Shown here: piece by piece, positions 3,763 to 63,200 of the stretch
Position numbering within the stretch: position 1 is the first letter of the stretch
How the letters are laid out: each line of letters begins with the position of its first letter
Assembly (NCBI GenBank): GCA_964461915.1
Contig: CAYWVD010000001.1
Coordinates: 156,671 to 220,670, forward strand
Source: an uncultured Candidatus Saccharibacteria bacterium
Lineage (GTDB): Bacteria > Patescibacteriota > Dojkabacteria > B142 > OLB20
Length of the DNA stretch: 64,000 nucleotides
Direction of reading: 5' to 3'
Notes under the pieces: model-generated
The model's input: the letters and a program-made list of their open reading frames with translations, nothing else
Databases searched by the model: none
Told to the model about the DNA's origin: nothing
Program-made: the position numbers and the translations under genes

Positions 3763-3796
3763 GAATAGGTAATAACAAGAATCTACAGAGATTCTA

Positions 3797-3825: not shown

Positions 3826-3891
3826 GACACAATCAGAATTTTTCTGTTGTTGTTGTATTGCTCTTTTATTATTATTTTTAATCAAGGGTTT

Positions 3892-4122: not shown

Positions 4123-4124
4123 TT

Positions 4125-4256: not shown

Positions 4257-4280
4257 TTATTTATATATTAATTAATTATA

Positions 4281-4661: not shown

Positions 4662-4701
4662 TCTTTAATTAAAATAAATATTTTTTATTAAATAAATAGT
4701 A

Positions 4702-8107: not shown

Positions 8108-8131
8108 ACTTATAAAATATTTAAGAATTTT

Positions 8132-8162
8132 AATCCCGGCTTTAAGAGTCGGGATTTTTTTT
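8132..8162 (+). terminator. rho-independent terminator after rpsI
   Basis: AATCCCGGC - TTTAAGA - GTCGGGATT stem-loop followed by a T8 run. Confidence 0.6.
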
Positions 8163-8268
8163 GGCTTCTAGTTTTTGATAGACAATTTAACTTTTATCAT
8201 GCAATAATAAAAAGATATTAATCAGCTAAGTGTTTTTTCAAAATTTTTAACTTCTTAGAAGAATTTTT

Positions 8269-9843: not shown

Positions 9844-9847
9844 AAAA

Positions 9848-11038: not shown

Positions 11039-11096
11039 ATTTCATTTTACTTTAAACAATATATAATATTTAAAGGGTTTTTGATAGAATTAACTC

Positions 11097-12371: not shown

Positions 12372-12374
12372 TTA

Positions 12375-12403
12375 TTGTTAAGAGATATTCTCCAGAGTAT
12401 AAT
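12375..12403 (+). promoter_or_regulatory. sigma70-like promoter TTGTTA-17-TATAAT upstream of lemA
   Basis: TTGTTA at 12375-12380, a 17-nt spacer, then TATAAT at 12398-12403. Confidence 0.3.
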
Positions 12404-12435
12404 TTATTATTAATTTTATTTATTAAATTTTTTTA

Positions 12436-13044
12436 ATGGAAATAGCATCAATCCTAATTCTATTAGTTTGTGGTGTAGTTGTGGCAATACTTATTTTTGG
12501 TATAGCTCTCTACAATAGTTTGGTTCAGGCTAAAATATTGGTCGATGAAGCATGGAGTGGCATAGATGTTCAATTAAAAAGGAGATACGATTTAATTCCA
12601 AATATTGTCGAAACGGTAAAGGGATATGCCAAACACGAAAGTTCTACTTTCGAGAAGATTGCCCAGTTAAGATCTGCTGCAATGAATACCACTAGCATTA
12701 ATGAGAAGGGTAAAATTGAGCAGGAATTATCAGGCACTTTAAAATCCCTTTTTGCTATTGCTGAAGCATATCCAGAATTAAAGGCAAACGAGAATTTCAT
12801 AAAATTACAAGATTCTCTATCAGAGATCGAAAATGAATTACAAGGTGCAAGACGCTATTACAATGGGACAGTTAGAGATTTCAACACAAAAATTATGGTT
12901 TTCCCAAATAACTTATTAGCAGGGATATTGGGCTTTAAAGCTAGAGAATTCTTTGCTGCTGAAGAATCTGAAAAGGCCAATGTTAAAGTTGATTTTTCAG
13001 ATAATAAGCCTGAAGCTCCAACAGAAGTTAAATCTGCTGAGTAA
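12436..13044 (+). CDS. lemA: LemA family protein
   Basis: N-terminal TM, then YNSLVQAKILVDEAWSGIDVQLKRRYDLIPNIVETVKGYAKHE is the LemA core. Confidence 0.8.
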   Translation: MEIASILILLVCGVVVAILIFGIALYNSLVQAKILVDEAWSGIDVQLKRRYDLIPNIVETVKGYAKHESSTFEKIAQLRSAAMNTTSINEKGKIEQELSGTLKSLFAIAEAYPELKANENFIKLQDSLSEIENELQGARRYYNGTVRDFNTKIMVFPNNLLAGILGFKAREFFAAEESEKANVKVDFSDNKPEAPTEVKSAE

Positions 13045-13065
13045 AAAATTTAAAACATTCATAAG

Positions 13066-15117
13066 ATGTTAAAAAACCTGGTAAAGAATCGGAAAAGTAT
13101 ATTGATTAATTTCTTAATATTCTTTTTGATCCTTTTATTTCCAGCCTTTGCCAGCGCCGATTCAGGTTATTACGAATCTTATAATGTTAATGTTGATTTT
13201 AACAATGATTCAACATATACCGTTACCGAATCTGTTTCGATAAATTTTTCCGGAACATTCAGAAAAGTCTTCAGAGGAATCACTTTAGTTGATGAAGATA
13301 TTGAGAAGTTGTGTATTGAATCAAATCTCCTCCAATGTGGTGGTTTTGAATACATGGAATTCCTTGGTGTTTTTGATGAAGCAGGCAATCGTGTTCCCGA
13401 CTCGGAAATTGAGATTGAAAAAGTATATGAAAGTGGCGAAGATAGATTTAAAATTACTTGGTATTTTGATGATGATGGGCGAGTATTTAATAATGAATAT
13501 TTCAATTACTCAATTAAGTATAAGGTTTATGGGGGACTAGGTTTCTTCGAAGATTATGATCTATTTTACTGGGATATGTTACCTCCTGAAAGACCTTCTG
13601 GGATAAACAATTCCTTAATAACCCTAAATTTCCCTCAAGGATTTGTATTTGATGATAATGGCTGGAAGGTTTTAACAGATTTAGGATATTCATATTTAGA
13701 TTATGATATTTCTAACGAAGGCTCTGTAGTAAAAATTAAATCCAAGGATATTAAAGTTGATCAAAATTTGACAGTCGCTTTAAAAATAAATAAAGGTCTA
13801 ATCCAAAAGCCAGGGAAAATCATTCTTGAATCGAAGCCAGATCCAATAAATTTGAAAATTAATGGAGTTCAATTGGATGCGGTATCAAAAGAGCTTGGTG
13901 GTATACCAGCAGGCAATTATGAACTGGAATTCTTCTATACTGGATATGATTCCCAAAAAATGAACATTACAATGGCCCAGGGTGAAGAGAAATCTATAAA
14001 AGTAGAATTAGAAGAAAGTTTAATTACTAAAATCCTTTTTTGGGGAAATATAATATGTGGGATTCTTTCATGCTTAATATTCCCGGTGGGAGTTTTGTGG
14101 ATATTTATGAAATGGAGAAAAAGTGGTAGAGATGAGTTTTACAGAGATACGATAGTCCCAGAATATACGCCACCAGATGATATTAAGCCATATTTACTTG
14201 GCGCTGTGAAAGACGAAAAAGTTGATATGATTGATATAACGGCAACTTTGATTGATGTCGCAAGAATGGGGTATATAAAAATAAGAGAATTTAAAAATCA
14301 AGGATTCCTTGGCATTGGTGGCTCTACAGATTATGAACTTGTAAAATTAAAAGATTTTTCATCCCTCGATGAAAATGAAAAGTTAATCATGGACTCCATG
14401 TTCTCAGGAAAAGAAAAATTAATAATGTCTATCGATTTAACTAATCTCTTCTATCTAAAAGTCCCAAGTATAAATAAATCCATCGATAAAGAAATGGTTA
14501 AAAGGAAATATTACAAAGAAAGTCCTGAAGATGTTAGAAATAAATATATAGGTATTGGAGCTGCAGGAGCATTCATTTCTGGTGGCGTTCTCTTTTTTGG
14601 ATTTGCATTCTTATTAATTATTCCTGGATTATTTATTACTGTAATTAGCATATTCTTATTGAGCATAGGTTTATCTATTGTTGGTAATTATATGCCCGCT
14701 AAGACAAAAGAGGGGGCAAAGATTTTAAATCGCATAAAGGGTTTTAGAATGTATTTGTATACTGCTGAAAGATTTAGAGTACAAGATTTAACTCCAGAAA
14801 CTTTTGAAAAATTCCTACCTTATGCAATGGTTTTTGGGATCGAAAAACAATGGGGAGAAAGGTTTAAAGACATCTATAAAAAAGCCCCTGATTGGTACGA
14901 AACATCTAGCTGGAACACGTTTAATACTATTTATATGATAAATTCTCTATCGAACTTCTCAACATATTCTTCAAGAACCCTAAGTTCAAGGCCTCAAAGT
15001 TCATCTTCGGGAGGCTCAAGGGGTGGATCGATTGGCGGAGGTTGGAGTGGTGGCGGTGGTTTTAGTGGATCATTTAGTGGTGGCGGTGGTGGCGGGGGAT
15101 CATCGGGCTGGGGCTAG
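13066..15117 (+). CDS. DUF2207-like membrane protein with Gly/Ser-rich C-terminal tail
   Basis: Signal peptide, large extracytoplasmic domain, several TMs, and a ...SGGSRGGSIGGGWSGGGGFSGSFSGGGGGGGSSGWG tail. This is the typical LemA partner arrangement. Confidence 0.6.
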   Translation: MLKNLVKNRKSILINFLIFFLILLFPAFASADSGYYESYNVNVDFNNDSTYTVTESVSINFSGTFRKVFRGITLVDEDIEKLCIESNLLQCGGFEYMEFLGVFDEAGNRVPDSEIEIEKVYESGEDRFKITWYFDDDGRVFNNEYFNYSIKYKVYGGLGFFEDYDLFYWDMLPPERPSGINNSLITLNFPQGFVFDDNGWKVLTDLGYSYLDYDISNEGSVVKIKSKDIKVDQNLTVALKINKGLIQKPGKIILESKPDPINLKINGVQLDAVSKELGGIPAGNYELEFFYTGYDSQKMNITMAQGEEKSIKVELEESLITKILFWGNIICGILSCLIFPVGVLWIFMKWRKSGRDEFYRDTIVPEYTPPDDIKPYLLGAVKDEKVDMIDITATLIDVARMGYIKIREFKNQGFLGIGGSTDYELVKLKDFSSLDENEKLIMDSMFSGKEKLIMSIDLTNLFYLKVPSINKSIDKEMVKRKYYKESPEDVRNKYIGIGAAGAFISGGVLFFGFAFLLIIPGLFITVISIFLLSIGLSIVGNYMPAKTKEGAKILNRIKGFRMYLYTAERFRVQDLTPETFEKFLPYAMVFGIEKQWGERFKDIYKKAPDWYETSSWNTFNTIYMINSLSNFSTYSSRTLSSRPQSSSSGGSRGGSIGGGWSGGGGFSGSFSGGGGGGGSSGWG

Positions 15118-21772: not shown

Positions 21773-23560
21773 TTAGATAAAAATTGGTGAAATTAATTTA
21801 ATTACATCGGCTGGCTTCATTTTAATTGATTCGGTATTTAAACCATCGTTGAATGCCGAAACAGCTTTGCTTTCAATCTCTCTTGAAAAATAGGTTGTCA
21901 TCCCTAAAAGATTTCCAAAAGGTGGGATTGAGCCTAGTTCTAGTCCAAATTTGTCTTTGATGATTTGAGGATTCTCAAATTCAAACTTCTCAGTTTCAAA
22001 GTTGGCAAGTAAGTTCATATCCAGCTTTTGATCGGCTGGAATACAAACCATAATATTCTTACCTGTTTTTTTCCCTCTTAATATAATGGCCTTAATTCCT
22101 TCATCGAGCTTGGTGTTTCTTAGTGTGGCTGATTCTTCAGAGGTTTTTGCAGGCTCATGGGTTACTGTTTCGAATTTGATTTTATTTTTGTTAAGTTGAG
22201 ATAATATTTCTGTATTTAATTCTTTGCCAAAGAAAATCTTAGGAGCTATTCTTACTCCTCCAATAAGTTTTGGATCTGATGGGAATAATTCGGCTTCTTT
22301 GATATTATCTAGACCAATCATTTTTTGGACAAATCTTGCAATTCCTAAGCCAAAACCGCCTTCCTCAGGCATGCCGTATTTAAAACCATCTAAATATTGT
22401 TTTAAACCTGGGTTATTTGAATCAATCCCTTTGGATTGGATTTGCGAAACTAACTTCTCATAATTTACTTCACGCCTAGTAATGGTAGCAAGTTCTACAC
22501 CTCGGAATATCAAATCAGCTCTATCTGCAAATTCTAGGTTTTTCTCATTTTGATGATGATAAAATTTTGCATCGGCCCAAGGGAAGTCAACAATAAATAA
22601 GGCTTCACTATTCCAGTTCTTAATGGAATATTCAGTAATGAACTTTTCCTCAGAGGGTGCAACATCCATTTCGCCTGTGTGATCTTCACCTGTCTCTTTT
22701 TTCATAAGCTCATGAAGATCTTTAACACTTATTCGAGGAAGTTTTTCAGAAATGATTGGCTTTTTTGCTCCAAGTTCTTCTAAAAGAGTCTTTGATTCAT
22801 TCCAGGTATTTTCGGTTATGTATTTGATAAAGGTCTCGGATACATTAAGAATATCTTCAAAGGAATTAATAAATCCCATCTCCATGTCCAACATTAAGAT
22901 CTCGGAGACATGTCTGCTGGTATTACTTTTTTCGGCTCTATAGGCTCTTCCGATTTCATAAACTTTTTCAAAAACTCCTACCATGATTTGTTTATAAAAC
23001 TGAGGGCTTTGCGCCATATAGGCTTTTTTATCAAAATAATTAACTTCGAAAACTTCTGCGCCACCTTCAGTTGGGAAGGCGATCATTTTTGGTGAATTAA
23101 TTTGAGTGAAATCATTTTGGTTGAAAAAGTCCCTAATAATCCTTTCTGCATTACTCGCTATTTTAAAAATTGATGATTGCTTGGGGTGTCGTAAAGTTAC
23201 AACTCGATTCTCAAGCATAGTATCAAATTCGACATTAAGATCATTCTTAGAAATATCGACCGGACTAGGAAATTTGACAGGCTGAATTATTTCAATATTG
23301 CCTTTTTGAACTTCCACGCCATATTGTGATTTTTCCGAAAGTATTGCATTACCTTTTATTCTTAAAACTGACCCAGTGTATAAACCGTCTAGTTTTTTAA
23401 TCTCTTCTTCAGATTCTAAAACAATTTGGCTTAAACCTTTTCTGTCTCTAAGGATCAAGAACGCAAGCTTTCCCATTGTTCTTAAATTATGGAGCCAGCC
23501 TTCAAGTAGGATTTCTTCGCCAATGTGATTTTTAAGATCATTCGATAATATTCTTTGCAT
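21773..23560 (-). CDS. aspS: aspartate--tRNA ligase, archaeal/eukaryal type, fused to C-terminal YbaK/ProX-like aminoacyl-tRNA deacylase domain
   Basis: N-terminal OB-fold anticodon domain, class II motifs (FTQINSP; GGAEVFEVNYFDKKAYMAQSPQFYKQ; GRAYRAE; GGFGLGIARFV). The last ~150 aa align end to end with E. coli YbaK (LNKNKIKFETVTHEP vs LEKNKISFQIHTYEHDP; KAII vs KTLL; GSIPPFG vs GGISPLG). Confidence 0.8.
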   Translation of the reverse strand: MQRILSNDLKNHIGEEILLEGWLHNLRTMGKLAFLILRDRKGLSQIVLESEEEIKKLDGLYTGSVLRIKGNAILSEKSQYGVEVQKGNIEIIQPVKFPSPVDISKNDLNVEFDTMLENRVVTLRHPKQSSIFKIASNAERIIRDFFNQNDFTQINSPKMIAFPTEGGAEVFEVNYFDKKAYMAQSPQFYKQIMVGVFEKVYEIGRAYRAEKSNTSRHVSEILMLDMEMGFINSFEDILNVSETFIKYITENTWNESKTLLEELGAKKPIISEKLPRISVKDLHELMKKETGEDHTGEMDVAPSEEKFITEYSIKNWNSEALFIVDFPWADAKFYHHQNEKNLEFADRADLIFRGVELATITRREVNYEKLVSQIQSKGIDSNNPGLKQYLDGFKYGMPEEGGFGLGIARFVQKMIGLDNIKEAELFPSDPKLIGGVRIAPKIFFGKELNTEILSQLNKNKIKFETVTHEPAKTSEESATLRNTKLDEGIKAIILRGKKTGKNIMVCIPADQKLDMNLLANFETEKFEFENPQIIKDKFGLELGSIPPFGNLLGMTTYFSREIESKAVSAFNDGLNTESIKMKPADVIKLISPIFI

Positions 23561-28196: not shown

Positions 28197-29204
28197 ATGG
28201 AAAGACATCCAGTGCCCCATAATTTTATGGATGTTGAATTTAAGCTTTTCGGTTTTTTTACTGTAAAGCAATTTGGATATTTGGCTGTTGGCTTTATTCT
28301 CTCATTGCTTATTTATTACTCGACTTTCCCTGATATTCTCAAGTTAATTTTCATTGGAGTTTCAATGGGTAGTGGGCTTGTTTTAGCGCTTGTTAAAATA
28401 AATGGCCAACCATCGGTAATTTATGTCCAAAACTTTATTACTAGTTTATTTGAACCCCAAGAAAGGCTCTGGAAAAAGACTCCTGTTGTTCCAGACATTT
28501 TACAAGAATCAAAGAACAATACAAAAGTTGAATCTAATAAAGAACTAGATAGCGCGCTTTCTAGAATAAAAGTTGCAAATATACCAGATCAGCCTTTAGC
28601 AAAATTATCTGAAGAAGAAGAAAAACTCGATAAATTCGAAAATGAAAATCTCAACAAAATTGACGAACATTTTGATTTCCTTTTTAATCAAGTCCCTGAA
28701 ATACAAGGCGAAAAATCTCAAACGCCATCTCACGATCGGGCCGTAAATACTCCACCAATAAACGAAACTATGTTTAAAAAGCCATCGACGATTGCTGATT
28801 CGATTAATCAAAATCTTCCGGGTGAAAAACTTTATGAAGGATCAAATTACGCTGTTTCGTTTAAACCTATGACGAGTAGGGTTAATAGACCGATTAATTT
28901 TAATGTTGCAAATCCTACCATGGCCGTTGTTAAAAATAATAATGCAAAATTGTACTTAACGGGAATAGTCGTTGATAGTGCTAATCAACCTATAAAATCA
29001 ACTAGAGTGGATATCATTGATCTTTCGGGCAAATTAGTTAGGTCACTAGCTACGAATAATGAGGGCAGATTTGAATTGATAAACCAATTACCAAGTGGCG
29101 ATTACTATTTAGATATTACAAAACCTGACTTCAACTTTGATCGCATAAGCGTTAATATAGAGGAAGGAAAATTATCAGACATTATTATTAAAGCGAAAAA
29201 CTAA
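28197..29204 (+). CDS. PrgI/VirB3-like membrane protein with C-terminal carboxypeptidase-regulatory-like beta-sandwich domain
   Basis: MERHPVPHNFMDVEFKLFGFFTVKQFGYLAVGFILSLLIYY matches the PrgI family N-terminus (VPQ..D.EDKI.G.LTLRQF.YL), with two TMs. C-terminus YLTGIVVDSANQPIKSTRVDIIDLSGKLV...GDYYLDITKPDFNF. Confidence 0.5.
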   Translation: MERHPVPHNFMDVEFKLFGFFTVKQFGYLAVGFILSLLIYYSTFPDILKLIFIGVSMGSGLVLALVKINGQPSVIYVQNFITSLFEPQERLWKKTPVVPDILQESKNNTKVESNKELDSALSRIKVANIPDQPLAKLSEEEEKLDKFENENLNKIDEHFDFLFNQVPEIQGEKSQTPSHDRAVNTPPINETMFKKPSTIADSINQNLPGEKLYEGSNYAVSFKPMTSRVNRPINFNVANPTMAVVKNNNAKLYLTGIVVDSANQPIKSTRVDIIDLSGKLVRSLATNNEGRFELINQLPSGDYYLDITKPDFNFDRISVNIEEGKLSDIIIKAKN

Positions 29205-29869
29205 TGGGATTATTCGGGTCATCTACAACACCAAGTACACAACAACATCTAGCGATTGAAGATATCAGGGACGATCTTGTAATCCTTAAAAATGGAATGA
29301 TTTCGTTAGTTCTCGAAGTAAATGCTTTGAATTTCGATTTGTTATCAGAGAAAGAGCAAGACATTAAAATCATGAGTTTTGCAGGTCTTTTAAATTCTTT
29401 GGAATTTCCTTTCCAAATCGTTATTCGTACAGAAAGAACAGATATTAGTACATATTTAGATAGATTAAGAATCTATAGAGAGAAACAAATATCCGATGCC
29501 CTAAAAAGACAAATAGATATTTATATGCAATTTATTCAGAATTTAACTGCGAATAAAGATATTCTTGATAAAACCTTTTATGTCGTAATTCCTGAGACAG
29601 GTAGTGTAGTCCAAAAAACTAGTAGTGTTAAACAATTTTTTGGCAAAAAAGAAAAGATTATTAATGTTAATTCAATTATGGACGAAATTAAGCCTAGGCT
29701 TTACCCTAAAAGAGATAATTTTATAAAACAATTTAAAAATATTGGTTTAACAGCATTTCAACTTGATAATGATCGACTCATCAAGCTTTATTATTCAATG
29801 TACGATCCAGATAAATTAGGAGTTTCTAAATTACAATTAAAAACAACACAATACACATCTAGTAAATAA
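29204..29869 (+). CDS. VirB4/TrsE/PrgJ N-terminal domain protein (separate ORF)
   Basis: HLAIEDIRDDLVILKNGMISLVLEVNALNFDLLSEKEQDIKIMSFAGLLNSLEFPFQIVIRTER matches the Gram-positive VirB4 N-domain. Stop overlaps the next start (TAATG). Confidence 0.55.
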   Translation: MGLFGSSTTPSTQQHLAIEDIRDDLVILKNGMISLVLEVNALNFDLLSEKEQDIKIMSFAGLLNSLEFPFQIVIRTERTDISTYLDRLRIYREKQISDALKRQIDIYMQFIQNLTANKDILDKTFYVVIPETGSVVQKTSSVKQFFGKKEKIINVNSIMDEIKPRLYPKRDNFIKQFKNIGLTAFQLDNDRLIKLYYSMYDPDKLGVSKLQLKTTQYTSSK

Positions 29870-31929
29870 TGAATATACTTGACGCAATATTAGGCAGAAA
29901 ACCAACTCAAAACGCCCCTCAAATTCAAGGACAAAAGTCTGTTGCCGATCATCAGACTAATCAATCACAAGTATCTAAAACAACTCCTGTAGCTTCAAAT
30001 AAAGCCGATGTCAAAGAAAATAAAAAAGAAAGCATTGGAATTAAACAAGTTTTAGAGGCTGTTATGGGTAAGCCAGAGGTAAAAGTAACGGAAGAAAAAA
30101 CTGAACAGCAATTAGAAGAAGAGGCTATTAAGAATTTTTCCGAAGGTATAGTTGATGTTAAAGATATCATTGCTCCGCCAGCTATTGAGATAGACTTTAA
30201 TAACATGCAAATAGGTAGTAAATATTTTAGGACCTTTTTTGCGACAGGATTCCCAACTTGGGTAGGCGCTAATTGGCTGTCCCCCCTTATAAATTTTGAA
30301 AAACCGATCACGATTTCAACTTTTTATTATCCAACAGATTCTGGACTTGTTTTACAGAGACTAAAAAGGAAGATAACTGAATTCCAAGCTACTTTGAACT
30401 TGGATTTAGAAGCAGGGAAACTTCCTGATCCAAATGTAAAGGTCGCATTAAGATCAGCGGAAGAACTTCAAGACCAGATTGCTTCTGGTAATCAAAAATT
30501 TTTTCACTTTGCTTTATATGTAACAATTCGTTCAACAAATCTAAAAGAGCTTGAGGAGATATCAAGAAATGTAGAATCAACCCTTTCAGCAATTGGAGTT
30601 ATTGTAAAAGTTGCTTCTCTTCAACAAGAGCAAGGCTTTATCTCAAGTCTGCCATTAGGATATGACAAAATCTATCTTAATAGGAATATGGACACAACTT
30701 CACTTGCGACTACATTCCCATTCGTATCTTCTGAGCTTACTATGGACGATGGAATTATGTATGGAATCAATAAGCATAATAAGAGTTTGATCATTTTTGA
30801 TAGATTTCAAATGCCTAACCCCAATATGGTAATTTTTGCCACATCTGGAGCAGGTAAATCATACTTCGTAAAACTCGAAGCTATGAGAAGTTTAATGCTT
30901 GGAACGCATATTCTTATTATTGATCCTGAAAAGGAATACGAAAAACTTACAAATGCGATTGGGGGAGAATATATTACATTCTCTCAAGATTCGAGAGCAA
31001 AATTAAATCCCTTCGAGCTGTCTGGAATTTTTGAAAAAGATGAGGATGAGCTTCGATTCAAGATACTTTTTCTTCAAGGTTTAATTAGAATCATGGTAGG
31101 GGGTTCTTTAACTCCAATCGAAACTGCTATACTTGATAGAGCCTTGATCCTTACTTATAAAGAAAAGGGCATTACTCCTGACCCATCAACGCAAAGACGA
31201 CCTCCACCACTACTGGAAGATCTTTATAAGATTTTAAATGCAATGGCAGAAGACGAAGCTCATTTACTTGCAAGTAAAATTGAAAGGTTTATAAAAGGTA
31301 GCGCAGCTGGAGTTTTCGATCAAGCCACAAATGTAAAAATTAACAATACATTTACTGCTTTTAGTATTAGGGATTTATCTGATGAACTTAGGCCTGTCGC
31401 AATGTATATCATGTTGGATTATATCTGGACGCTTGTTAAAAAAGATAAAAGACAAAGGATTCTAATTATTGACGAGGCTTGGTGGATGATGCAATATCCT
31501 GACGCTGCTCGTTTTGTGTATTCTATTGTAAAAAGATCTAGAAAATATGGACTAGGAGTAACCACAATCACACAGGATGTTAATGACTTTTTGAATTCTG
31601 ATTATGGAAAGGCTGTAGTTAATAACTCTTCGATCCAACTTCTACTAAAGCAAAATGCTGCTGCAGTCGATCAGATACAAAAAGTTTTCTATTTGTCTGA
31701 TGGAGAGAAAGATTATTTATTATCGGCTGGCATTGGAGAAGGTTTGTTTTTTGCTGATTATAATCATGTTGCTATTCAAGTTTTAGCTAGTGAAAATGAG
31801 CATAACCTTATAACAACAAACTTAAGAGAACTACTTGCGATGGAAACTAAGGCCAAAGATGAAGCTGCTGCGGTAAAAGATGTTAGACCTCAAAAAAGTG
31901 TAGTTAAGACGAATTTATCAGTAGAATAA
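29869..31929 (+). CDS. virB4: VirB4-like type IV secretion ATPase (ATPase domain)
   Basis: Walker A FATSGAGKSYF, Walker B ILIIDEAWWMM, and a C-terminal CagE/TrbE/VirB architecture. Confidence 0.8.
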   Translation: MNILDAILGRKPTQNAPQIQGQKSVADHQTNQSQVSKTTPVASNKADVKENKKESIGIKQVLEAVMGKPEVKVTEEKTEQQLEEEAIKNFSEGIVDVKDIIAPPAIEIDFNNMQIGSKYFRTFFATGFPTWVGANWLSPLINFEKPITISTFYYPTDSGLVLQRLKRKITEFQATLNLDLEAGKLPDPNVKVALRSAEELQDQIASGNQKFFHFALYVTIRSTNLKELEEISRNVESTLSAIGVIVKVASLQQEQGFISSLPLGYDKIYLNRNMDTTSLATTFPFVSSELTMDDGIMYGINKHNKSLIIFDRFQMPNPNMVIFATSGAGKSYFVKLEAMRSLMLGTHILIIDPEKEYEKLTNAIGGEYITFSQDSRAKLNPFELSGIFEKDEDELRFKILFLQGLIRIMVGGSLTPIETAILDRALILTYKEKGITPDPSTQRRPPPLLEDLYKILNAMAEDEAHLLASKIERFIKGSAAGVFDQATNVKINNTFTAFSIRDLSDELRPVAMYIMLDYIWTLVKKDKRQRILIIDEAWWMMQYPDAARFVYSIVKRSRKYGLGVTTITQDVNDFLNSDYGKAVVNNSSIQLLLKQNAAAVDQIQKVFYLSDGEKDYLLSAGIGEGLFFADYNHVAIQVLASENEHNLITTNLRELLAMETKAKDEAAAVKDVRPQKSVVKTNLSVE

Positions 31930-35967: not shown

Positions 35968-36612
35968 TTAAATTTTCTCTCCACATTCTGCACAAAATTT
36001 CATACCGGGTTTTAAATCAGCAGAACATTTTGGACATTTTGTTTTGGGTTTTAAGTTGGTACCACATTCAGGACAAAATTTTGCATTTTTAGCTAAAGGT
36101 TTTTCGCAATTGGGACAAGAACCAATTATGCCTTCTCTCCAATATTCTGTACCTAATTTTTTGTCCTCTTCGGCCATAGCTGCATGTGCGTAAACTTCTT
36201 CAACAGATTTTTGAGATTGTGCTCTTGCCATTTCAACTCCTAAATCAGGAGAACATTCCTTACAAAGGCCTTTATTTGAGTTCCAACAGCGTTCTCTACA
36301 TATCCATTTATTGCAACTTGGGCATTGTATAAATTTGGGGGAAATTTCTTTTCCGGCATTTTCTAGAGCTTTTTCATGTGCTTGTTCCCATGTGGCTGAT
36401 TTAACATTCTGAGATATGTCAGATGCATTTGAAAATATTCCACCTAGGATTCCACTTGCGCTGTCTAAAATTTTTGAAACAGTTCCTGTAGCAGAAGTTT
36501 CAAATTTGCTTTTATATCCATTGCCACATCTATCGCAAAAGAATTCAAATTGAAAACCAGTATCGGTACTTTTATCTTCGTAATTTCTTGTGAATTTAAT
36601 TGGGTCTGACAT
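35968..36612 (-). CDS. multi-zinc-ribbon protein (hypothetical)
   Basis: Several CxxC pairs (CDRCG, CPSCNKWIC, CKEC, CPNCEK...CPECG, CPKC...CAECG). Confidence 0.4.
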   Translation of the reverse strand: MSDPIKFTRNYEDKSTDTGFQFEFFCDRCGNGYKSKFETSATGTVSKILDSASGILGGIFSNASDISQNVKSATWEQAHEKALENAGKEISPKFIQCPSCNKWICRERCWNSNKGLCKECSPDLGVEMARAQSQKSVEEVYAHAAMAEEDKKLGTEYWREGIIGSCPNCEKPLAKNAKFCPECGTNLKPKTKCPKCSADLKPGMKFCAECGEKI

Positions 36613-36646: not shown

Positions 36647-37042
36647 TTATTTTGAACATTCATTGTTAAAGAATGCCCATTCTTCGCATTCTTTGCCATC
36701 TTCAAAAACACAATATCCAACTTCTCCTTGCAAATCTTTTCGGATCTCAATTTTACCACCATTTTCAATACAGTATTCAGATGCAGGATTAGCTATTTGA
36801 GATGTAGTTTGAGTGAAAATTTTGCCATCAGAAGTCACGCATTTAGGTGGGTAGCCTTCGATAACAGGGAAACCTTTTTCTACACACGCATCAAAAGATT
36901 TAATGTCGCTTTCGTTTTGGGTGTCTGTTTCGCCAGTAAATGGAAGATTTTTCATTGAAAAAAAAGAAGTTGCACTACCGACAATGACAATAATCAGGGC
37001 AAAAATACCAATTACGGTAAATAAGGTTTTTTTCTCCATCAT
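36647..37042 (-). CDS. secreted DUF333 (putative hemolysin-like) domain protein
   Basis: Signal/TM N-terminus. C-terminus ANPASEYCIENGGKIEI...GYCVFEDGKECEEWAFFNNEC matches DUF333 (NPAS.YC..GG...C.F.DG..CEEWA). Confidence 0.55.
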   Translation of the reverse strand: MMEKKTLFTVIGIFALIIVIVGSATSFFSMKNLPFTGETDTQNESDIKSFDACVEKGFPVIEGYPPKCVTSDGKIFTQTTSQIANPASEYCIENGGKIEIRKDLQGEVGYCVFEDGKECEEWAFFNNECSK

Positions 37043-37070
37043 TAGGATTTTAATATATAAATATATTACA

Positions 37071-38774
37071 CTAAGAATCTTTTAATTTAAAAGCCTTTTT
37101 AACTAGTTTATATGTTTCCTCTCCATTAAGTTCTGTGCTATCAATAATTGTGCCTTTAAAATTTGTAGGGAGTTTATTGGGTTCTGGATAATCAACTAAA
37201 TTATATCTCCTAATATAGTCTTGACGATCAGCAATTTGCCTCTTTGATAGATTTAACATCTCGTTACGAATTAAATCTTCGGTCAGATTTTCTTTTGAGA
37301 GTGTTTTTAATAGTGATCTTTTTGCTCGAACTTCTAAGTTTGTGTGCAACCAAACGGCTTTTGAATTTTCAAAAATAAAATTATAATACGATTCAAATAG
37401 ATCTGCTTTATTTTGTGAAGTTAATTCCTCAAGCAAAAACTTTTTAAAAGAATTTGAAAACATAAATAAAGGAAGTATTTTGGAATCTATTAAAATCTTA
37501 GATTTGTCATCAATTGCTTTGATAATTCTTTTAATCATGTAAGAATCTAATTCCTTATCAACATCACGGCCAATCAAAACACAATTATCTCTAAATCCTT
37601 TTATGTCTGCTTTATCTAAATCAAAATCATCAGGATCTTCTGGTATTTTATAACCACTCTTAACAAATCCGGCTTGTATTGATTTTTGTTTTAAAATCGA
37701 GCCAATATATAAAAATTCGAATTTATTGTCTTTAAGTATTCTATGGGAGATGTAACTAGTTCCGGTCTTCCCTGGGCCACTTAAGATGTAAATTTGAGCC
37801 TTTTTAGATTGTTTAAGTATAAAGAAAATAAAATAAGTGAAAATACCTAGTGGAATAGAGATATAAAGACATCTTAAAAAAAGTTCGTAACTAATTATCG
37901 GCTGAACTGCAATAGTAGGAGTAATTGTAGGGTATTCAGTAGGTTTTTGTGTAGGGATATAAGTAATAATAGATGGTTCAAAAGTAATATCTGGAGTGTC
38001 GCTAGGATATTCTATTGTAACAGTAAACCCCGGGGATGTTGTGATTGAGACTGAGGGAGTAATAGTCACACTAGGTGTAATATAAACACCGTTAATAGTA
38101 AAAAACAATACTTGGCTTTGAGTAGAATTATCAATAATTCCATTAATAAACAAATTTGCATAAGTTGAATAATTCAGGTTCGGGAAATTAGACGATGGTA
38201 GCGAAATTATATAGTTTCCATTTTCATCAGCATTAATAGTATATCTATAAAAAGAATCCCCAATAATTGTTATCTGCAACACAGCGTTAGGATATGTATA
38301 CCCGGATATTTCTATGATTTCGTTCTCAACGAAGTAATTTTGATTAATTGAAATAGTTGGGGGTAAAAAAATATTTGTAAATACAGTCGTTTGTTTAGGT
38401 AATAAAAGTGCAGGAATATTTATAGTATTTGAAACATTATTAAGGGGATCAGTTGAATAGATTTCGACATGATGGACTCCTGGAGTTAATGCAAAAAGTT
38501 CCTTAACGAATAGCCCATTTGTCCCATCGCTATTAACGCTCCAGTTGTATCCAGGGGAAACACTATCTAAACCGACAGTTCCATACCATGAGCCAACATT
38601 ACCTGAAGTACTTCCTGAGTTTATTGCCGCCTCAGTACCAACAACAAGAGTGCCACTAGTTGCAGTATATCTATGAGAAGCATCTACTTTAATTGGGTTA
38701 ATTAATAAAAAAGATAGCACCAGAAAGGTACAGGAAAAAATGAATTTTGTACTTAAAAAATACAATTTAAACAA
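37071..38774 (-). CDS. membrane protein: extracellular Ig-like/TP-rich region + TM + cytoplasmic archaeal-type cytidylate-kinase-like P-loop domain
   Basis: Signal peptide, TPSVTITPSVSITTSPG linker, TM. Then YILSGPGKTGTSYISHRIL (P-loop), AVWLHTNLEVRAKRSLL and IRRYNLVDY resemble archaeal CMP kinase (IWLKAPLEVRAERI; RYkeyYGID). Confidence 0.5.
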   Translation of the reverse strand: MFKLYFLSTKFIFSCTFLVLSFLLINPIKVDASHRYTATSGTLVVGTEAAINSGSTSGNVGSWYGTVGLDSVSPGYNWSVNSDGTNGLFVKELFALTPGVHHVEIYSTDPLNNVSNTINIPALLLPKQTTVFTNIFLPPTISINQNYFVENEIIEISGYTYPNAVLQITIIGDSFYRYTINADENGNYIISLPSSNFPNLNYSTYANLFINGIIDNSTQSQVLFFTINGVYITPSVTITPSVSITTSPGFTVTIEYPSDTPDITFEPSIITYIPTQKPTEYPTITPTIAVQPIISYELFLRCLYISIPLGIFTYFIFFILKQSKKAQIYILSGPGKTGTSYISHRILKDNKFEFLYIGSILKQKSIQAGFVKSGYKIPEDPDDFDLDKADIKGFRDNCVLIGRDVDKELDSYMIKRIIKAIDDKSKILIDSKILPLFMFSNSFKKFLLEELTSQNKADLFESYYNFIFENSKAVWLHTNLEVRAKRSLLKTLSKENLTEDLIRNEMLNLSKRQIADRQDYIRRYNLVDYPEPNKLPTNFKGTIIDSTELNGEETYKLVKKAFKLKDS

Positions 38775-38877
38775 AATATATACTTTGACTAATAATAATA
38801 TACATAAAATTAAAATCTAAAAAAAGTCCATATAAAAATGCTATAATTTTTCGTTGTTAACTTTTTATTTTCTAAAA

Positions 38878-39864
38878 ATGAACTTAATCACAGGAGCAAA
38901 CGGAAGAATAGGTAATGTAGTTGTTCGTAAATTACTTGAAAAAGGTGAAAAAGTAAGGATATTTGCAAGAAATACTTCAAATTTATCATCCCTTAAAGGA
39001 CTTGAATATGAAGTTGCAAATGGTGATATTAATGACTTGCAAAGTGTTTTGATGGCGATGGATGGCTGTGATCAAGTTTATCATTTAGCTGCAGACATCA
39101 ATATTAATAATAAAAATGCCGATAAAACTTTTAAAATCAATATTCTAGGTACTGAAAATATCCTACAAGCCTGTATTGAAAAGAAAGTAAAACGACTAGT
39201 TTATGTAAGTTCAATTCATGCTTTCTCTTTACCACCTAAGGGGCAACAAATAAACGAAGAAACTCCATTATGTGATGAAGATGACAAAAGGGGAGTATAT
39301 GATAGATCAAAAGCTAAAGCTACAAGAAAGGTCTTAAATACAAAAGCAGAAGGCTTTGAGGCTGTTGTTGTTTGTCCAACAGGTGTTGTCGGGCCTTATG
39401 ATTTTGAGCCATCATTTTTTGGCAAAGGAATGATCGAATCAATCCAAAGTGGACTAAAAATCACAGTGCCAGGTGGTTTTGATTATGTAGATGTAAGAGA
39501 TGTTGCAGATGGAATAATTTCCGCAATGAAAAATGGTAAACCTTATCAAATTTATTTACTTGGTAACGAATACATAACAATGAAGGAATATTTTGGCTAC
39601 CTTGCTGAACTTAGCGGAATTAAAGTGAAAACAAAAGTTTTGCCTTTCTGGCTTGCTAAAACAATGGGATATGTTTTGAATCTCTTTTCTGATAATTCAT
39701 CCATTACTGATTATTCTGTTGATACTTTAATGGGAAATGCAGACATTTCTCATGAAAAAGCATCAAAGGAATTAGGCTACAAGCCAAGATCAATGAAAGA
39801 ATCAATCACTGATCAATACAATTGGTTTAAAGATAATGGATACTTTAAAACTAAAGAGAAATAA
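38878..39864 (+). CDS. NAD-dependent epimerase/dehydratase family (SDR) protein
   Basis: ITGANGRIGNVVVRKLLEKGEKV Rossmann motif. ATG at 38878 preferred over the track's TTG at 38854. Confidence 0.8.
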   Translation: MNLITGANGRIGNVVVRKLLEKGEKVRIFARNTSNLSSLKGLEYEVANGDINDLQSVLMAMDGCDQVYHLAADININNKNADKTFKINILGTENILQACIEKKVKRLVYVSSIHAFSLPPKGQQINEETPLCDEDDKRGVYDRSKAKATRKVLNTKAEGFEAVVVCPTGVVGPYDFEPSFFGKGMIESIQSGLKITVPGGFDYVDVRDVADGIISAMKNGKPYQIYLLGNEYITMKEYFGYLAELSGIKVKTKVLPFWLAKTMGYVLNLFSDNSSITDYSVDTLMGNADISHEKASKELGYKPRSMKESITDQYNWFKDNGYFKTKEK

Positions 39865-40435: not shown

Positions 40436-40672
40436 ATGCCAAGATTAGATGGAACTGGTCCTTTAGGACAGGGACCAATGACTGGACGAGGAAGAGGTAA
40501 AGGTATGGGACGTGGTAGAGGAAAAGGAATGGGAGGTCGTGGACAGGGAGGAAGTAAAGAGTGCACATGTCCTAAATGTGGTTATAAAGAACCACATACA
40601 AGAGGAATTCCTTGTTCAGAGAAAAAATGCCCTGAATGCGGAACACTTATGAAAGGTGCTTTTTGCTTATAG
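40436..40672 (+). CDS. DUF5320-like small Gly/Arg-rich, Cys-cluster protein
   Basis: MPRLDGTGPLGQGPMTGRGRGKG... (compare the DUF5320 N-terminus MPRGDGTGPMGmGPmTGRG) followed by a CxxC...CxxC zinc ribbon. Confidence 0.45.
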   Translation: MPRLDGTGPLGQGPMTGRGRGKGMGRGRGKGMGGRGQGGSKECTCPKCGYKEPHTRGIPCSEKKCPECGTLMKGAFCL

Positions 40673-60269: not shown

Positions 60270-63200
60270 TTATAGTATCTGAGAATAGATTTTCTCAAGG
60301 TATTCGCGAACCATTCTATCAGTTGAGAAGTCTTTTAGTGCCATCTGCATTGAATTCAACATCATATCTAACCAATCAGAATTATATTCCCCCTCATTAA
60401 TATTATAATAAAGAGGTAGTATCTCATTTTCTAAAATCTCGTACATTTTTTGAGCAGAATCATCTTCTGGGATTTCCCAACCGATTTTGTACCAATTTAC
60501 TTCATCTGTCCAACCATCTCTAGTAGTAAACTGAATAAGTCCATTGGCGGCTGCTTTCATTCCGCTAGTACCAGATGCTTCCTCATAACGATAAGGTGTA
60601 TTTAACCAAATATCAGCGCCACTTACCATTCTTCTTGCGAGTTGCCAATTATATCCGGGAATAATTTCAATTTTATTATGAAATTCTTCTGAAGCAAAGC
60701 ACTGGTTCATTCTTTTTAGAATTTCCTTGCCAATATTATCTTTAGGATGAGATTTCCCGGCAATTAGAATCTGAATAGGTCTTGATGAATTGTTAATTAT
60801 TCTTTTTAGTCTTTCAATATCAGTAATGAGTAGGTCGGGTCGTTTATAAGCAGCCAGTCTTCGCGACCATGCGATAGTTAAAACATCATCTCTAAGATTT
60901 AATCCTAGTTCGGTATTTAGTGAATGAATTAGTTTTTGCTTACGAATTTTATGAGCATTCCAAAGTCTAGCTTTAGGAATCTTTTTAATATTTTCATAAT
61001 TTACGAAAGGACAACCTAAATGCCAGTTTTCACCTAAAAATTCATCATAAAGTTCATGAATTTCAGTACTAACCCAAGTAGGCATATGAACTCCATTAGT
61101 TACAGGAACTAAATTGTATTGAGGCCAAATCTTTTTTGCAGCGACAGAATGAATTTTACTAACTGCATTTGAAACTTTAGCATTTCTCATCCCGAAAATG
61201 GTCATCGAAAAACCTCCAGATGAATAAGTTTTATCGTCTCCAAGTTCAAAAAGTTTAGCAATATCTACTCCAAGTTCTTTAGCTGTTGAACTAAGATATT
61301 TTTCAAATAATAAAAAGTCGAAAATGTCATTACCAGCTTGCTTTAGTGTGTGGTTTGTAAATACAAGCTTATCTTGGGCCTTTTTAAGTGCTGTTTCAAA
61401 ATCTAACTTTTCATCATGCATTAATGATAATGTGTATTCAAAGATGATAAAACCAGAATGGCCTTCGTTCATATGCAAAATTGAAGGATTAATATTTAAA
61501 GCATGCATCAAACGCATACCGCCATAGGCTAAAACCAATTCTTGTCTTATTCGATTTTCTATATCGCCACCATATAAATAACCAGTGATAAGTCGATCTT
61601 CCCATTCTTCATTATCCTCGAAATTTGTATCCAACAAGTAGAGATTGTTCATGCCTACTCTTTGTTTCCAAGCTCGAACCTTTACGATATGGTCAAACAG
61701 CAGTACAGGAATCGTAAGCTGTGTTCCATCGGGATTTTTTACAAGCTCAAGATTAAAATCCATTGGATCCTGATGGATATAGTCTTCAATTTGTTTTCCA
61801 TCCGGAGAAAAGTCTTGATGAAGATAACCTTGATGATAAAAAAGACCAATTGCAACTAAAGGTATTCCGTAATCTGATGTTTGTTTTACAAAATCACCGG
61901 CAAGTATTCCCAAGCCACCTGAATAAATTTGCATCCAGTCTATTAGACCGAATTCCATGCAGAAATACGCAATAGGATTTTCGATTAATTTCTCGAATTT
62001 TTGATTTTTATTAACAAAATTTTCAAAAAAGCAGGTTCGTTTGAAATAGTTATAATAAAGCCTGAGGCTTTGTTCTAATTCCCATTGTTTACTTTCTAAA
62101 ATTTGATTGAGTTTTTCTTTTCCATAATTAGCAATGATTGCCTCTGGCGGAATGTTTTTTCTCCAACCATCACCATACATGTCAATTATTGGCAAAATAT
62201 AATGAGGATTCCAGGTAAACCACAAGTTATTAAGTAATGTTTCAAATTTATCACGATTAGAAGATGTCAAAATCTCTACATCGACTTCTTCGTGTTGAGC
62301 TCCAATAAAAACACCGAAATTTAATAATTTCGAGTAGATTTTGTTTTCGATCTCATGTAAAAGAATATCGCCCTGAGCTTCAATATAAACTTGAATAAAA
62401 TGTTTTCTGTATAAAGAACAATATATTGCAAAGCCTTCTTGAGTCAAAGTGATACCGTCTTTAGTATCGGGAGTGGCATCGGGGAAAATATCCATCAATG
62501 CATAAGTAATATCATCCCAGCTTACAAATTCATTCAATAAGAAATTGTTTTGCCAAGACAATGAGGTCGATAGGTTTAAATTTGAAATCTCTTGAGAAAG
62601 TTTATTATTAGTTTCATTTAACAACTCTAGGATTAAGAAAAGTGTATAGATAGGACTGCTTGAAAAATTGCAGTCACTATAATAATAAGTGCCATTCGAT
62701 TCTGAAGCATATTTAAGTTCTAAATCTCTCAGGCTCCTATTAATAAGTTTAAAACTTGAGGATAATTTTATTCCAACCAGTCCAAATTCTTCTGTTTTTT
62801 TATTGAGTCCTATGGATTGTTTAAGATCAAATCCGACCTTAGAACCTGGATATTTTTTGCTAATTATTTTTAATAAAAGCGCAGATAAATGATTAGGATT
62901 AATTATGATTCCAGTTTCATCAATAAATACTAAACTGTTCCCATCTTGATCAAGACTTATTGCTAGGTCTGCTTTTTCTTCTCTAAGTTTTTCAATTAAT
63001 TTTAAACTGTTATTGGGTACTAAGGGGTTTGGTATATGGTGAGGGAATTGTTCGTTAGGTTCAGTATTTATAGTAATTACATTTACCTTTGTAAACTGTG
63101 ACAAGAATTTTTTAAAAATTATTCCACCAAGTCCATTACCTCCGTCAATGACTATTTTGAAATTTTTCCAATTATTCGGATCGAAAAATTTCATTATGTG

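Follow-up and report, generated by a model that had tools for sequence, protein, structure and literature searches.

A membrane-tethered homologue of archaeal-type CMP kinases in a Patescibacteria lineage, with an N-terminus rearranged by deletion

One minus-strand gene in the window (by which we mean the whole 64-kb stretch of DNA analyzed here) encodes a single-pass membrane protein with a cytoplasmic domain that profile comparisons identify, at the superfamily level, as a homologue of archaeal-type CMP kinase. Nucleoside-monophosphate (NMP) kinases are normally soluble housekeeping enzymes. We think it probable that the domain is a divergent type-2 (d)CMP-kinase homologue, tethered to the membrane by gene fusion and putatively active, and that the copy in the window is a deletion rearrangement of that fusion. 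Only one Patescibacteria lineage has the tethered form, an unusual and very rare gene fusion and not a new kind of system. The gene model in the window is itself a deletion chimera.

Layout of the open reading frame and the deletion at its N-terminus

The ORF begins with a TTG start codon, and the identical 567-aa protein is encoded on 4 contigs, one of which is an 808-kb NCBI contig. Its features are as follows.

37071..38774, minus strand: chimeric membrane-tethered CMP-kinase-like protein, 567 aa, stop codon within the coordinates
38511..38774, minus strand: residues 1-88, derived from a giant surface protein, signal peptide included (83% identity to P0004 residues 1-88)
38679..38774, minus strand: residues 1-32, signal-peptide-like segment ending in VDA and followed by SH
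38515..38521, minus strand: deletion junction, a 7-nt microhomology (CAAATGG) common to the giant gene and the kinase gene
38091..38510, minus strand: residues 89-228, beta-rich ectodomain, equal to that of the intact 548-aa allele, with the C-terminal remnant of a Big_6 domain
37890..38090, minus strand: residues 229-295, Thr/Pro/Ser/Ile-rich linker, its C-terminal end being the conserved juxtamembrane motif PIISYELF
37812..37883, minus strand: residues 298-321, single transmembrane (TM) helix, followed by KQSKK (positive-inside)
37074..37811, minus strand: residues 322-567, cytoplasmic domain homologous to archaeal-type (type-2) CMP kinases, divergent and interrupted by two insertions
37752..37781, minus strand: residues 332-341, phosphate-loop region SGPGKTGTSY, with Thr339 at the Walker-Lys position and a conserved Lys336 at loop position 4

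The signal peptide, the Thr/Pro linker (15 Thr and 11 Pro in its 67 residues) and the single TM helix described in the first-pass annotation are all found in the ORF, as are the three motif strings that it had picked out, SGPGKTGTS, VWLHTNLEVRAKR and IRRYNLVDY; the cytoplasmic part is 246 aa long rather than the 260 aa given there. The single helix and the positive-inside KQSKK that follows it predict that the kinase-like domain, and the phosphate-loop region with it, lies inside the cell.

The sister loci encode a giant secreted protein, then a 307-aa secreted and C-terminally TM-anchored protein (WxLIP-like, see below), then the kinase-like gene. Residues 1-88 of the window protein are foreign to the kinase gene and originate from the adjacent giant surface-protein gene by way of a deletion; the DNA that encodes them matches positions 7875-8263 of locus L084 at 88%. 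An in-frame deletion mediated by microhomology fused codon 88 of the giant gene to the kinase gene at about its codon 70, with the loss of the remainder of the giant gene, the WxLIP-like gene, the original signal peptide and half of the Big_6 domain. By tblastn, the WxLIP-like ORF is absent from the window. In the syntenic position, L085, L002 and L003 carry an intact 548-aa gene with the WxLIP-like gene before it, and L084 carries a 2073-aa fusion. Two independent in-frame deletions have occurred at this one locus, which also has a 117-aa remnant allele in L002; the reading frame, a signal peptide and the TM helix survive both deletions.

The extracellular part had been described as Ig-like repeats, and this description holds better for the intact sister allele than for the window copy. 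The 548-aa protein (P0005) passes the Big_6 model PF17936 over residues 30-103, with 31.2 bits against a cut-off of 27.6, and so has one such domain. The ectodomain of the window protein gave only a sub-threshold match to DUF4183 in Pfam and none to Big_6, because the deletion took approximately the first 40 residues of that domain. In the AF2 model, strands are predicted for residues 89-228 at low pLDDT, and the chimeric N-terminal region is predicted to be disordered, with a pLDDT of about 22 for residues 33-99. In the window copy, the receptor-like architecture proposed earlier is in part an accident of the deletion that produced this N-terminus. Comparison of the ectodomain with the WxLIP-like and giant proteins, as possible paralogues, revealed no similarity between them.

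Relationship of the cytoplasmic domain to archaeal-type CMP kinases

Neither the window protein nor its domain taken alone matched any kinase family in Pfam or NCBIfam, even with the threshold relaxed to E<=10. The domain belongs to a family of 14 representatives in 1.84 billion proteins; the family alignment and profile comprise 13 sequences. No member of this family reaches the TIGR02173 cut-off of 102.1 bits (the best, P0010, scores 38.6, and the domain of the tethered P0002 scores 18.8), the PF02224 cut-off of 26 bits (best member 25.4; the window member has no match) or the TIGR00017 cut-off of 135.6 bits (best member 22.2). PDB searches with a single sequence or a shallow profile gave non-significant matches to NMP kinases (E=0.17-1.1), hhalign with a 4-sequence profile was not significant (P=0.1), and phmmer searches of all window ORFs with the CMP kinases (CMKs) of E. 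coli, Yersinia and M. abscessus found nothing.

The homology was established with the 13-sequence profile. Aligned by hhalign to 22 type-2 CMKs, it matched with 99.1% probability and E=1.4e-18, family positions 3-245 corresponding to kinase positions 1-180 of 181 (180/181 columns). The same profile matched P0019 with 97% probability; as a positive control, P0019 passes TIGR02173 with 115.4 bits. In each library searched, CMKs come out on top: TIGR02173 is the top NCBIfam model for 11/13 members, PF02224 is first for 8/13, and the top four PDB profile matches are all CMKs. Fold searches likewise rank CMKs first, and the predicted structure has the central parallel sheet, the phosphate loop after strand beta-1 and the LID and NMP-binding helices of the NMP-kinase/P-loop kinase fold, with significant structural similarity to solved kinases. 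The domain modeled alone has a pLDDT of 87.7 and is again confident in the full-length AF2 model. When an HMM built from the 22 type-2 CMKs was run against the window ORFs, only the ORF at 37071-38774 matched (E=3e-7), and no canonical cmk was found within the 64-kb window. Two soluble family members carry the automatic JGI name "cytidylate kinase". The suggestion of archaeal CMP kinase motifs in the cytoplasmic domain is thus upheld. The particular models that had been named for a profile check fared less well: PF13189 (Cytidylate_kin2) matches in 1/13 members and AAA_18, like AAA_17, matches weakly in some, with TIGR02173 leading. The domain does not score as a generic AAA or ABC fragment.

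The phosphate loop departs from the canonical form, and the "P-loop" of the first-pass annotation is accordingly best described as a Lys-shifted phosphate-loop region. The window protein contains no GxxxxGK[ST] Walker A motif; in every profile alignment T339 occupies the Walker-Lys position and K336 lies three residues upstream. A loop of the form G-x-P-G-x-G-[ST]-[ST]-T, without the Walker Lys, occurs in 21/22 of the retrieved type-2 CMKs. The window loop, G333-P-G-K336-T-G338-T339-S340, keeps the G...G-[ST]-[ST] frame and replaces the Gly at position 4 with Lys; this position is K or R in all 12 of the 12 family members that include the region. The two AF2 models start helix alpha-1 at different residues (T339 and K336), so the geometry of the loop is uncertain. 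We had considered the missing Walker Lys as a sign of a pseudokinase, and dropped this idea on finding that 21/22 archaeal-type CMKs also do without it. A swap of the helix alpha-1 Lys of type-2 CMKs (K22) for K336 was also dropped, since a semi-conserved basic residue persists in the family at the adjacent position. To our knowledge, the activity of Lys-less type-2 CMKs has been assigned by similarity, and we found nothing in the literature on the biochemistry of archaeal or Lys-less type-2 CMKs.

The remainder of the putative active site is well preserved. Residues that are >=85% conserved in type-2 CMKs include, in window numbering, G358, K362, D410, K432, W475, R483-A484-x-R486, K490, R512, D516 and Y524. 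In the alignment with P0019, its K40, D70, K87 and R110-A-x-R113 correspond to K362, D410, K432 and R483-A484-x-R486, and its R117, R132, E136 and Y144 to K490, R512, D516 and Y524. The first-pass annotation had proposed comparing the LID and NMP-binding residues with archaeal CMK structures; in alignment with P0019 and the 22 type-2 CMKs the conserved set is kept, and the mapped substrate- and phosphate-binding positions are invariant or conservatively replaced across the 13-member family. At the conserved positions of the soluble family, tethered members show only the changes R362K and E430D and three aliphatic swaps. The family also has two insertions that could alter the substrate, one of about 20 aa within the NMP-binding region and another, of about 28 aa, following strand beta-3.

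Distribution, selection and gene neighborhood

The usual form of the family is a soluble bacterial (CPR) protein of about 250 aa. Fusion behind a signal peptide, an ectodomain and a TM helix is found in three clusters, which are 47-60% identical, and the juxtamembrane and TM segment is conserved among these tethered members. Protein-alignment scans of GTDB genomes and JGI metagenomes recovered no relatives, and we found nothing relevant in the literature on membrane-anchored NMP kinases or on Patescibacteria CMK. Compared with sister strains, dN/dS is 0.12-0.15 for the cytoplasmic domain and 0.09 for the ectodomain, estimates that derive from only 8-9 substitutions; by this measure the cytoplasmic domain appears to be under purifying selection. 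The domain evolves faster than its neighbors: relative to L002 the kinase domain is 63% identical, the DUF333 protein 81% and the epimerase 91%, and relative to L086 the kinase domain is 42% identical and the zinc-ribbon protein 76%. The genes next to soluble relatives include NUDIX, HD and dCMP-deaminase genes, and a YfbR-like 5'-nucleotidase with a TK-like gene.

Two genes follow the kinase-like gene in the window.

36647..37042, minus strand: membrane-anchored DUF333 protein (PF03891, E=1e-22), 28 nt downstream of the kinase-like gene
35968..36612, minus strand: 214-aa multi-zinc-ribbon (DZR) protein (PF12773, E=8e-12), 34 nt after the DUF333 gene

Both had been put forward as candidates for coupling to the kinase-like protein. 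The linkage of the DUF333 gene is upheld, as it follows the kinase-like gene in every subclade locus, including that of a 42%-identical soluble relative; we found nothing relevant in the literature on DUF333 function. The case for the zinc-ribbon gene is weak. It is syntenic only in a narrow clade and belongs to a widespread family with >286 metagenomic relatives, and in 0/80 other loci does it have a kinase-like or DUF333 neighbor; for these reasons we downgraded the idea of a conserved three-gene module. A scan for promoters and terminators gave signals not above shuffled expectation.

Interpretation and comparison with known systems

In one lineage of Patescibacteria, a gene encoding a surface protein with a C-terminal TM anchor acquired a kinase gene at its 3' end, and by this fusion the kinase domain is attached to the membrane from the cytoplasmic side. 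We propose that the domain would bind ATP together with an NMP, either CMP/dCMP or a related one, and transfer phosphate between them, using the family-specific K336 in the phosphate loop in place of the Walker Lys, together with the LID arginines R483 and R486, K362, K432, R512 and acidic residues. That binding and phosphotransfer are retained is the most likely reading of these sequences. Catalytic activity, the substrate and any benefit of tethering are inferred; a tether might, for example, put the recycling of CMP to CDP beside membrane enzymes that release CMP, such as the CDP-alcohol and CDP-diacylglycerol transferases. The tethering fusion could also be neutral.

The first-pass annotation had offered a signalling pseudo-kinase and a localized kinase as alternatives, and the retained catalytic-type residues and the salvage context of the soluble relatives favor a real kinase. 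We give a minor but appreciable chance to the opposite view, that the domain is a signalling pseudo-kinase or nucleotide sensor: a module that has lost phosphotransfer and binds ligands or proteins at the cytoplasmic end of a surface protein with a single membrane pass. It would perhaps report what state the ectodomain is in to partners, for which the zinc-ribbon and HTH proteins are examples. The absence of Lys at the Walker position and the invisibility of the domain to curated kinase HMMs are consistent with such a sensor, but the Lys-less loop is ancestral in type-2 CMKs rather than a decay that accompanied tethering, the remaining conserved basic and acidic residues have all been kept, and the changes between tethered and soluble members are conservative. 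A sensor would also fit a domain whose rate of evolution equals that of the ectodomain and exceeds that of the flanking genes, the conservation of the juxtamembrane/TM segment, and an operon in which the DUF333 protein is membrane-anchored and the zinc-ribbon protein cytoplasmic. However, the zinc-ribbon family lacks the kinase in 80/80 other loci, nucleotide-salvage genes adjoin the soluble relatives, and purifying selection persists although the window ectodomain is partly destroyed. As for a more elaborate version, we consider it improbable that the intact form is a single-pass receptor kinase, in which the state of a surface ectodomain, part of a giant-adhesin/WxLIP-like complex, would control a membrane-bound, Lys-shifted NMP kinase. 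Attachment or the assembly of the envelope would then be linked to the local supply of CDP/CTP or to a nucleotide signal, and the co-transcribed DUF333 protein would be an extracytoplasmic partner.

It is unlikely that the fusion, and above all the deleted allele of the window, is a by-product of surface-locus decay with no envelope-related function, and we hold to the same degree the variant in which its frame is kept only for the promoter and start of downstream genes or for a still-useful kinase. The two in-frame deletions with the L002 remnant, the predicted disorder of the chimeric N-terminus, the loss of the WxLIP-like partner from the window and the extreme rarity of the family would all agree with decay. 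Against it, the fusion architecture persists across 47-60% identity, dN/dS is low in both parts of the protein, neither deletion has disrupted the frame or removed the TM helix or the presence of a signal peptide, and the deleted allele is the one sampled most often (the 4 contigs, the NCBI contig among them). It is extremely improbable that the domain belongs to another P-loop family, whether a generic AAA, an ABC fragment, or a shikimate, gluconate or dephospho-CoA kinase: the weak AAA_17 and AAA_18 matches would point that way, but CMK models top every library, the alignment to type-2 CMKs is full-length, the LEVRAKR, RQ..D..Y and IID motifs match, and neither an ABC signature nor an AAA-type Walker B was seen.

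An NMP kinase that is anchored through a TM helix to a surface protein, and conserved as such in three ultra-small bacterial lineages, would rarely be matched as an example of nucleotide metabolism physically located at the envelope. The "invariant" Walker lysine is missing from archaeal-type CMP kinases as a group, and in the sub-family of the window a lysine has become fixed at position 4 of the loop instead; both are testable points of P-loop chemistry. The analysis also defines a small family that present Pfam and NCBIfam models miss. Its practical weight is limited, as the family is tiny, the tethered form occurs in one lineage and the fusion may be neutral.

Among known systems, the sister loci recall the WxL/Csc clusters of Firmicutes in carrying a gene similar to WxLIP (PF06030, formerly DUF916) after the giant gene. 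The likeness is incomplete: the 307-aa sister-locus protein is borderline for PF06030 (26.4 bits against a cut-off of 27.3), neither the 117-aa remnant nor P0004 gave a match to a WxL domain, and the window has no WxLIP-like gene. We know of no kinase-like component in WxL clusters.

The closest relatives of the domain itself are the proteins of TIGR02173 (cyt_kin_arch), the "cytidylate kinase type 2" of HAMAP. The homology spans the whole kinase. In the alignments, the Walker-Lys position of the phosphate loop is Ser/Thr in both groups, and they share the motifs IW(L/I)xAxLEVRAKR, R(E/Q)xx(E/D)xxxY, YG.D and (I/V)ID, and a Lys after strand beta-3. The loop is GPGK[ST]G in the window family and GPPGxG in type-2 CMKs. 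Members of TIGR02173 are soluble single-domain proteins of about 170-210 aa, whereas the window domain has about 247 aa with two insertions and is tethered; its family scores far below the equivalog cut-off, is bacterial (CPR) and is fused in three clusters. Scores to the bacterial Cmk (PF02224, TIGR00017; PDB 1kdo, 3r20 and 2h92) are much weaker than to the archaeal type, and the GxxGxGK[ST] Walker A of that enzyme is absent here. PF13189 (PDB 3hdt and 3fdi, proteins of unknown function) matches its single family member at E=0.005.

Natural replacements of the Walker Lys in P-loop kinase-fold ATPases offer a precedent for the proposed role of K336: the K14L form of Kti12 in Eurotiomycetes is active without the lysine, with lower ATP affinity, and in the gp28 terminase of phage Mu an upstream loop Lys has been proposed as its substitute (PMC7363723). 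These families are unrelated to that of the window, and Leu is the substitute there, compared with Thr/Ser here. The guanylate-kinase-like (GK) domain of MAGUK proteins would be the working analogue of a pseudo-kinase, related to the window domain by fold and not otherwise in sequence. The tethered members have lost none of the residues conserved in the soluble family, and whereas MAGUK GK domains are without catalytic residues, the window domain keeps them.

Architecture and family of the tethered protein

The gene under study lies upstream of two others on the minus strand:

37071-38774, minus strand: 567-codon ORF with a TTG start
28-nt gap after this kinase-like ORF: DUF333 gene (PF03891, E=1e-22)
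35968-36612, minus strand, a further 34 nt past the DUF333 gene: double-zinc-ribbon gene (PF12773, E=8e-12)

Hydropathy analysis of the 567-aa protein revealed two hydrophobic segments, a signal-peptide-like one at aa 4-30 (ending ...PIKVDA/SH) and one at aa 298-321 that is followed directly by KQSKK. Because an N-terminal signal, cleavable or anchoring, is combined with a single TM helix that fits the positive-inside rule, residues 322-567 are predicted to be cytoplasmic. The linker at aa 229-295 is rich in Thr, Pro, Ser and Ile (15 Thr and 11 Pro per 67 residues). Hydropathy, composition and the KQSKK motif thus bear out the signal peptide, Thr/Pro linker, single TM helix and internal C-terminal domain described in the first-pass annotation. 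The host is a Patescibacteria/CPR bacterium with low-GC DNA (~32%); the SecY of the window is 91% identical to that of one MAG and ~40-44% identical to those of Gottesmanbacteria, Levybacteria and other CPR.

Curated HMM models gave no kinase family match to the window protein even at E<=10, and a single-sequence search of the PDB had a cytidylate kinase (E=1.1) as its one match. When 1.84 billion representatives were searched exhaustively with phmmer, 14 proteins emerged in all: three tethered clusters or fragments and about ten soluble proteins of 231-288 aa, with 30-42% identity across the whole domain. Two soluble members carry the JGI name "cytidylate kinase". Remote comparisons used a profile of a 13-sequence family alignment, A3. 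TIGR02173, the model for type-2 (archaeal-type) (d)CMP kinases, is the top NCBIfam match for 11 of the 13 members (best E=1e-9); six members match TIGR00017, the bacterial cmk model, and eight match Pfam Cytidylate_kin weakly. The best four PDB matches of the profile are all CMKs. By hhalign, A3 scored 81% against bacterial CMKs, 97% against P0019 (a 181-aa protein above the TIGR02173 cut-off) and 99.1% against 22 aligned type-2 CMKs (E=1.4e-18, 180 of 181 positions covered). The archaeal-type CMP-kinase-like motifs had been read correctly from the start. No family member reaches the TIGR02173 equivalog cut-off (best 38.6 versus 102.1 bits), and the family differs from type-2 CMKs by two insertions of ~20 and ~28 aa; it is therefore a divergent sister family rather than an equivalog. 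Fusion to a TM-anchored surface protein keeps a type-2-CMK-family domain at the inner membrane face, and three clusters, 47-60% identical, retain this fusion.

The soluble relative P0008 (L086, 6001-6747) has an odd polar N-terminus, MLDSNIGGPGK, at the expected strand beta-1. No better start codon was found upstream as far as the first stop, and either a non-canonical start or a degenerate strand beta-1 is indicated.

Alleles of the surface-protein locus

The 90%-identity cluster of the window protein includes two 548-aa proteins (P0005 and P0006) and a 2073-aa protein, P0004. The 548-aa allele starts with another signal peptide (MKNFLKF...) and carries a Big_6 Ig domain in its N-terminal part (31.2 bits versus a cut-off of 27.6). 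The window protein shares 83% identity with the P0004 N-terminus over aa 1-88 and matches P0005 exactly from NGLFVKELFAL on. The left part of the window gene matches, at 88% DNA identity, the start of a giant surface-protein gene in L084, a fully syntenic locus; the right part is 99% identical to L084 and 97% to L085. A 7-nt microhomology, CAAATGG, marks the junction of the two parts (window 38515-38521). Judged from these alignments, the window gene is a deletion chimera. The identical protein occurs on four contigs, one of them an 808-kb NCBI contig, so this allele is not an assembly one-off. It is without the original signal peptide and about the first 40 residues of Big_6; the Ig-like region noticed earlier corresponds to a single Ig domain in the intact allele and is truncated in the window copy. 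The grafted segment, aa 33-99, is disordered in the AF2 model (pLDDT ~22).

Directly upstream of the intact gene in L002, L003 and L085 is a gene for a 307-aa secreted protein with a C-terminal TM anchor and a borderline, sub-cut-off WxLIP match (PF06030, 26.4 versus 27.3 bits). No strong Pfam domain is present in the giant protein, whose gene has shrunk to a 117-aa remnant in L002. Neither the WxLIP-like gene nor the giant gene body has left a trace in the window. A second in-frame fusion, independent of that in the window and with another breakpoint, is present in L084. Close strains thus carry an intact 548-aa gene after the WxLIP-like gene, the 2073-aa giant fusion, the 567-aa window fusion or the 117-aa remnant, and this variety of alleles among sister loci marks a structurally polymorphic surface-protein locus:

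38511-38900: window
8001-14222: L084
1-1996: L085
385-3282: L002

Both independent in-frame deletions keep a signal peptide, the TM helix and the kinase. When L002 is compared with window 36647-39864, identity falls sharply at the target gene: the flanking epimerase is 91% identical, the DUF333 protein 81% and the kinase-like domain 63%, and the Ig-TM-kinase protein reaches 60-66% in its ecto and cyto parts alike. Against L085, dS is uneven along the gene (0.17 ecto, 0.03 cyto). The identity drop and uneven dS suggest allelic replacement or mosaic recombination at the locus.

Phosphate loop and possible activity

The proposed P-loop, SGPGKTGTS, does align with kinase loops, but the window protein has no GxxxxGK[ST]; T339 occupies the Walker-Lys position in all profile alignments, and K336 aligns to a conserved Gly at loop position 4. 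Two AF2 models differ in the start of helix alpha-1 (T339 versus K336). The missing Lys might have meant a dead kinase, a reading that was dropped since 21 of the 22 type-2 CMK relatives with a readable loop (P0019-P0040, outside the window) likewise have none, their loop being G-x-P-G-x-G-[ST]-[ST]-T. This Lys-less set includes proteins called (d)CMP kinase by NCBI and JGI, and 3hdt, a PF13189 structure, is Lys-less too. Absence of the Walker Lys is therefore ancestral in type-2 CMKs, and archaeal-type (d)CMP kinases (TIGR02173-like) lack it almost universally; we found no literature discussing or testing this loss. Unlike type-2 CMKs, the family has the loop GGPGK[ST]Gx[ST][ST], with its Lys in 11 of 12 members and Arg in the twelfth.

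Positions at which 85% or more of type-2 CMKs agree are invariant or conservatively replaced in the family; K40, D70, K87, R110-A-x-R113, R117, R132, E136 and Y144 of P0019 correspond to window K362, D410, K432, R483-A484-x-R486, K490, R512, D516 and Y524. R362K, E430D and three aliphatic swaps are the only departures of tethered members from the soluble consensus. Between near-identical strains dN/dS of the cytoplasmic domain is 0.12-0.15, a value based on just 8-9 substitutions. One soluble relative (L090) adjoins NUDIX, HD and dCMP-deaminase genes and another (L174) a YfbR-like 5'-deoxynucleotidase gene, with a TK-like gene nearby; others have unrelated housekeeping surroundings. Residue retention, selection and salvage-gene neighbours favour a working nucleotide kinase. 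Against this stand evolution faster than that of the neighbours (63% identity to L002, versus 81% for DUF333 and 91% for the epimerase), the two insertions, and the fact that we found no published biochemical validation of Lys-less type-2 CMKs.

Gene neighbours and possible role

Both downstream genes had been put forward as candidates for coupling. DUF333 follows the kinase-like gene in all subclade loci (window, L001, L002, L003, L084 and L085), and on three contigs P0008, the 42%-identical soluble member, is followed by DUF333 and also by the 214-aa zinc-ribbon gene. Distant soluble kinase-like genes have neither partner, and the DUF333 linkage, although real, is therefore restricted to a narrow clade. 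The zinc-ribbon candidate fared worse: in 80 zinc-ribbon loci (L094-L173), of which 65 extend far enough upstream for a verdict, neither a kinase-like gene nor DUF333 was seen as a neighbour. L086 and the window share 42% identity in the kinase-like domain, 59% in DUF333 and 76% in the zinc-ribbon protein, whose linkage may be inherited synteny only. With more than 286 metagenome relatives of the same length (43-63% identity), the 214-aa multi-zinc-ribbon protein is a highly conserved, widespread uncharacterised family in its own right; its N-terminal 160 aa matched no known domain.

Other features of the window are as follows.

60270-63680, minus strand: 1136-aa ORF with phosphoglucomutase/phosphomannomutase domains I-III, DUF3417 and a glycogen-phosphorylase-like domain; it looks like an unusual fusion of two glycogen-breakdown steps
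21773-23560, minus strand: class-II aminoacyl-tRNA synthetase (Asp/Asn/Lys type) with a C-terminal YbaK-like tRNA_edit domain (PF04073, E=2e-18), an uncommon pairing
28197-31929, plus strand: conjugation or type-IV-secretion-like block
29869-31929: VirB4/TraG-type ATPase (P-loop_TraG, AAA_10), adjoined in syntenic L084 by a TraC-like gene and a PrgI/CarboxypepD_reg gene
2272-5124, plus strand: secY, then directly infA-, rpsM- and rpsK-like genes, with no adenylate kinase or map gene between them; the usual bacterial arrangement differs
40436-40672, plus strand: 78-aa ORF with a Gly/Arg-rich N-terminus (GRGRGKGMGRGRGKGMGGRGQGG) and a CxxC...CxxC zinc ribbon, adjoining a DUF134 gene and conserved in syntenic L084

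No adk- or cmk-like ORF was seen across the 64-kb window.

The cytoplasmic domain would phosphorylate CMP/dCMP or a related NMP by way of K336 and the LID arginines. Tethering may serve CMP recycling beside CMP-releasing membrane enzymes, or may be neutral. In the window allele the TM helix and kinase are kept and the ectodomain is damaged; any sensing of the cell exterior by this protein would probably be poor in this copy. The simplest explanation is a lineage-specific gene fusion. Neither transmembrane-anchored NMP kinases in prokaryotes nor this family turned up in our literature searches; both the tethered architecture and the loop stand out as unusual and can be tested, although the family is tiny. 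Among P-loop kinases, Kti12 K14L is active without the canonical Lys, and in Mu gp28 an upstream loop Lys has been proposed to compensate for it (PMC7363723). The present family is a divergent, Lys-shifted branch of the archaeal-type CMP kinases, and its membrane-tethered architecture is rare.
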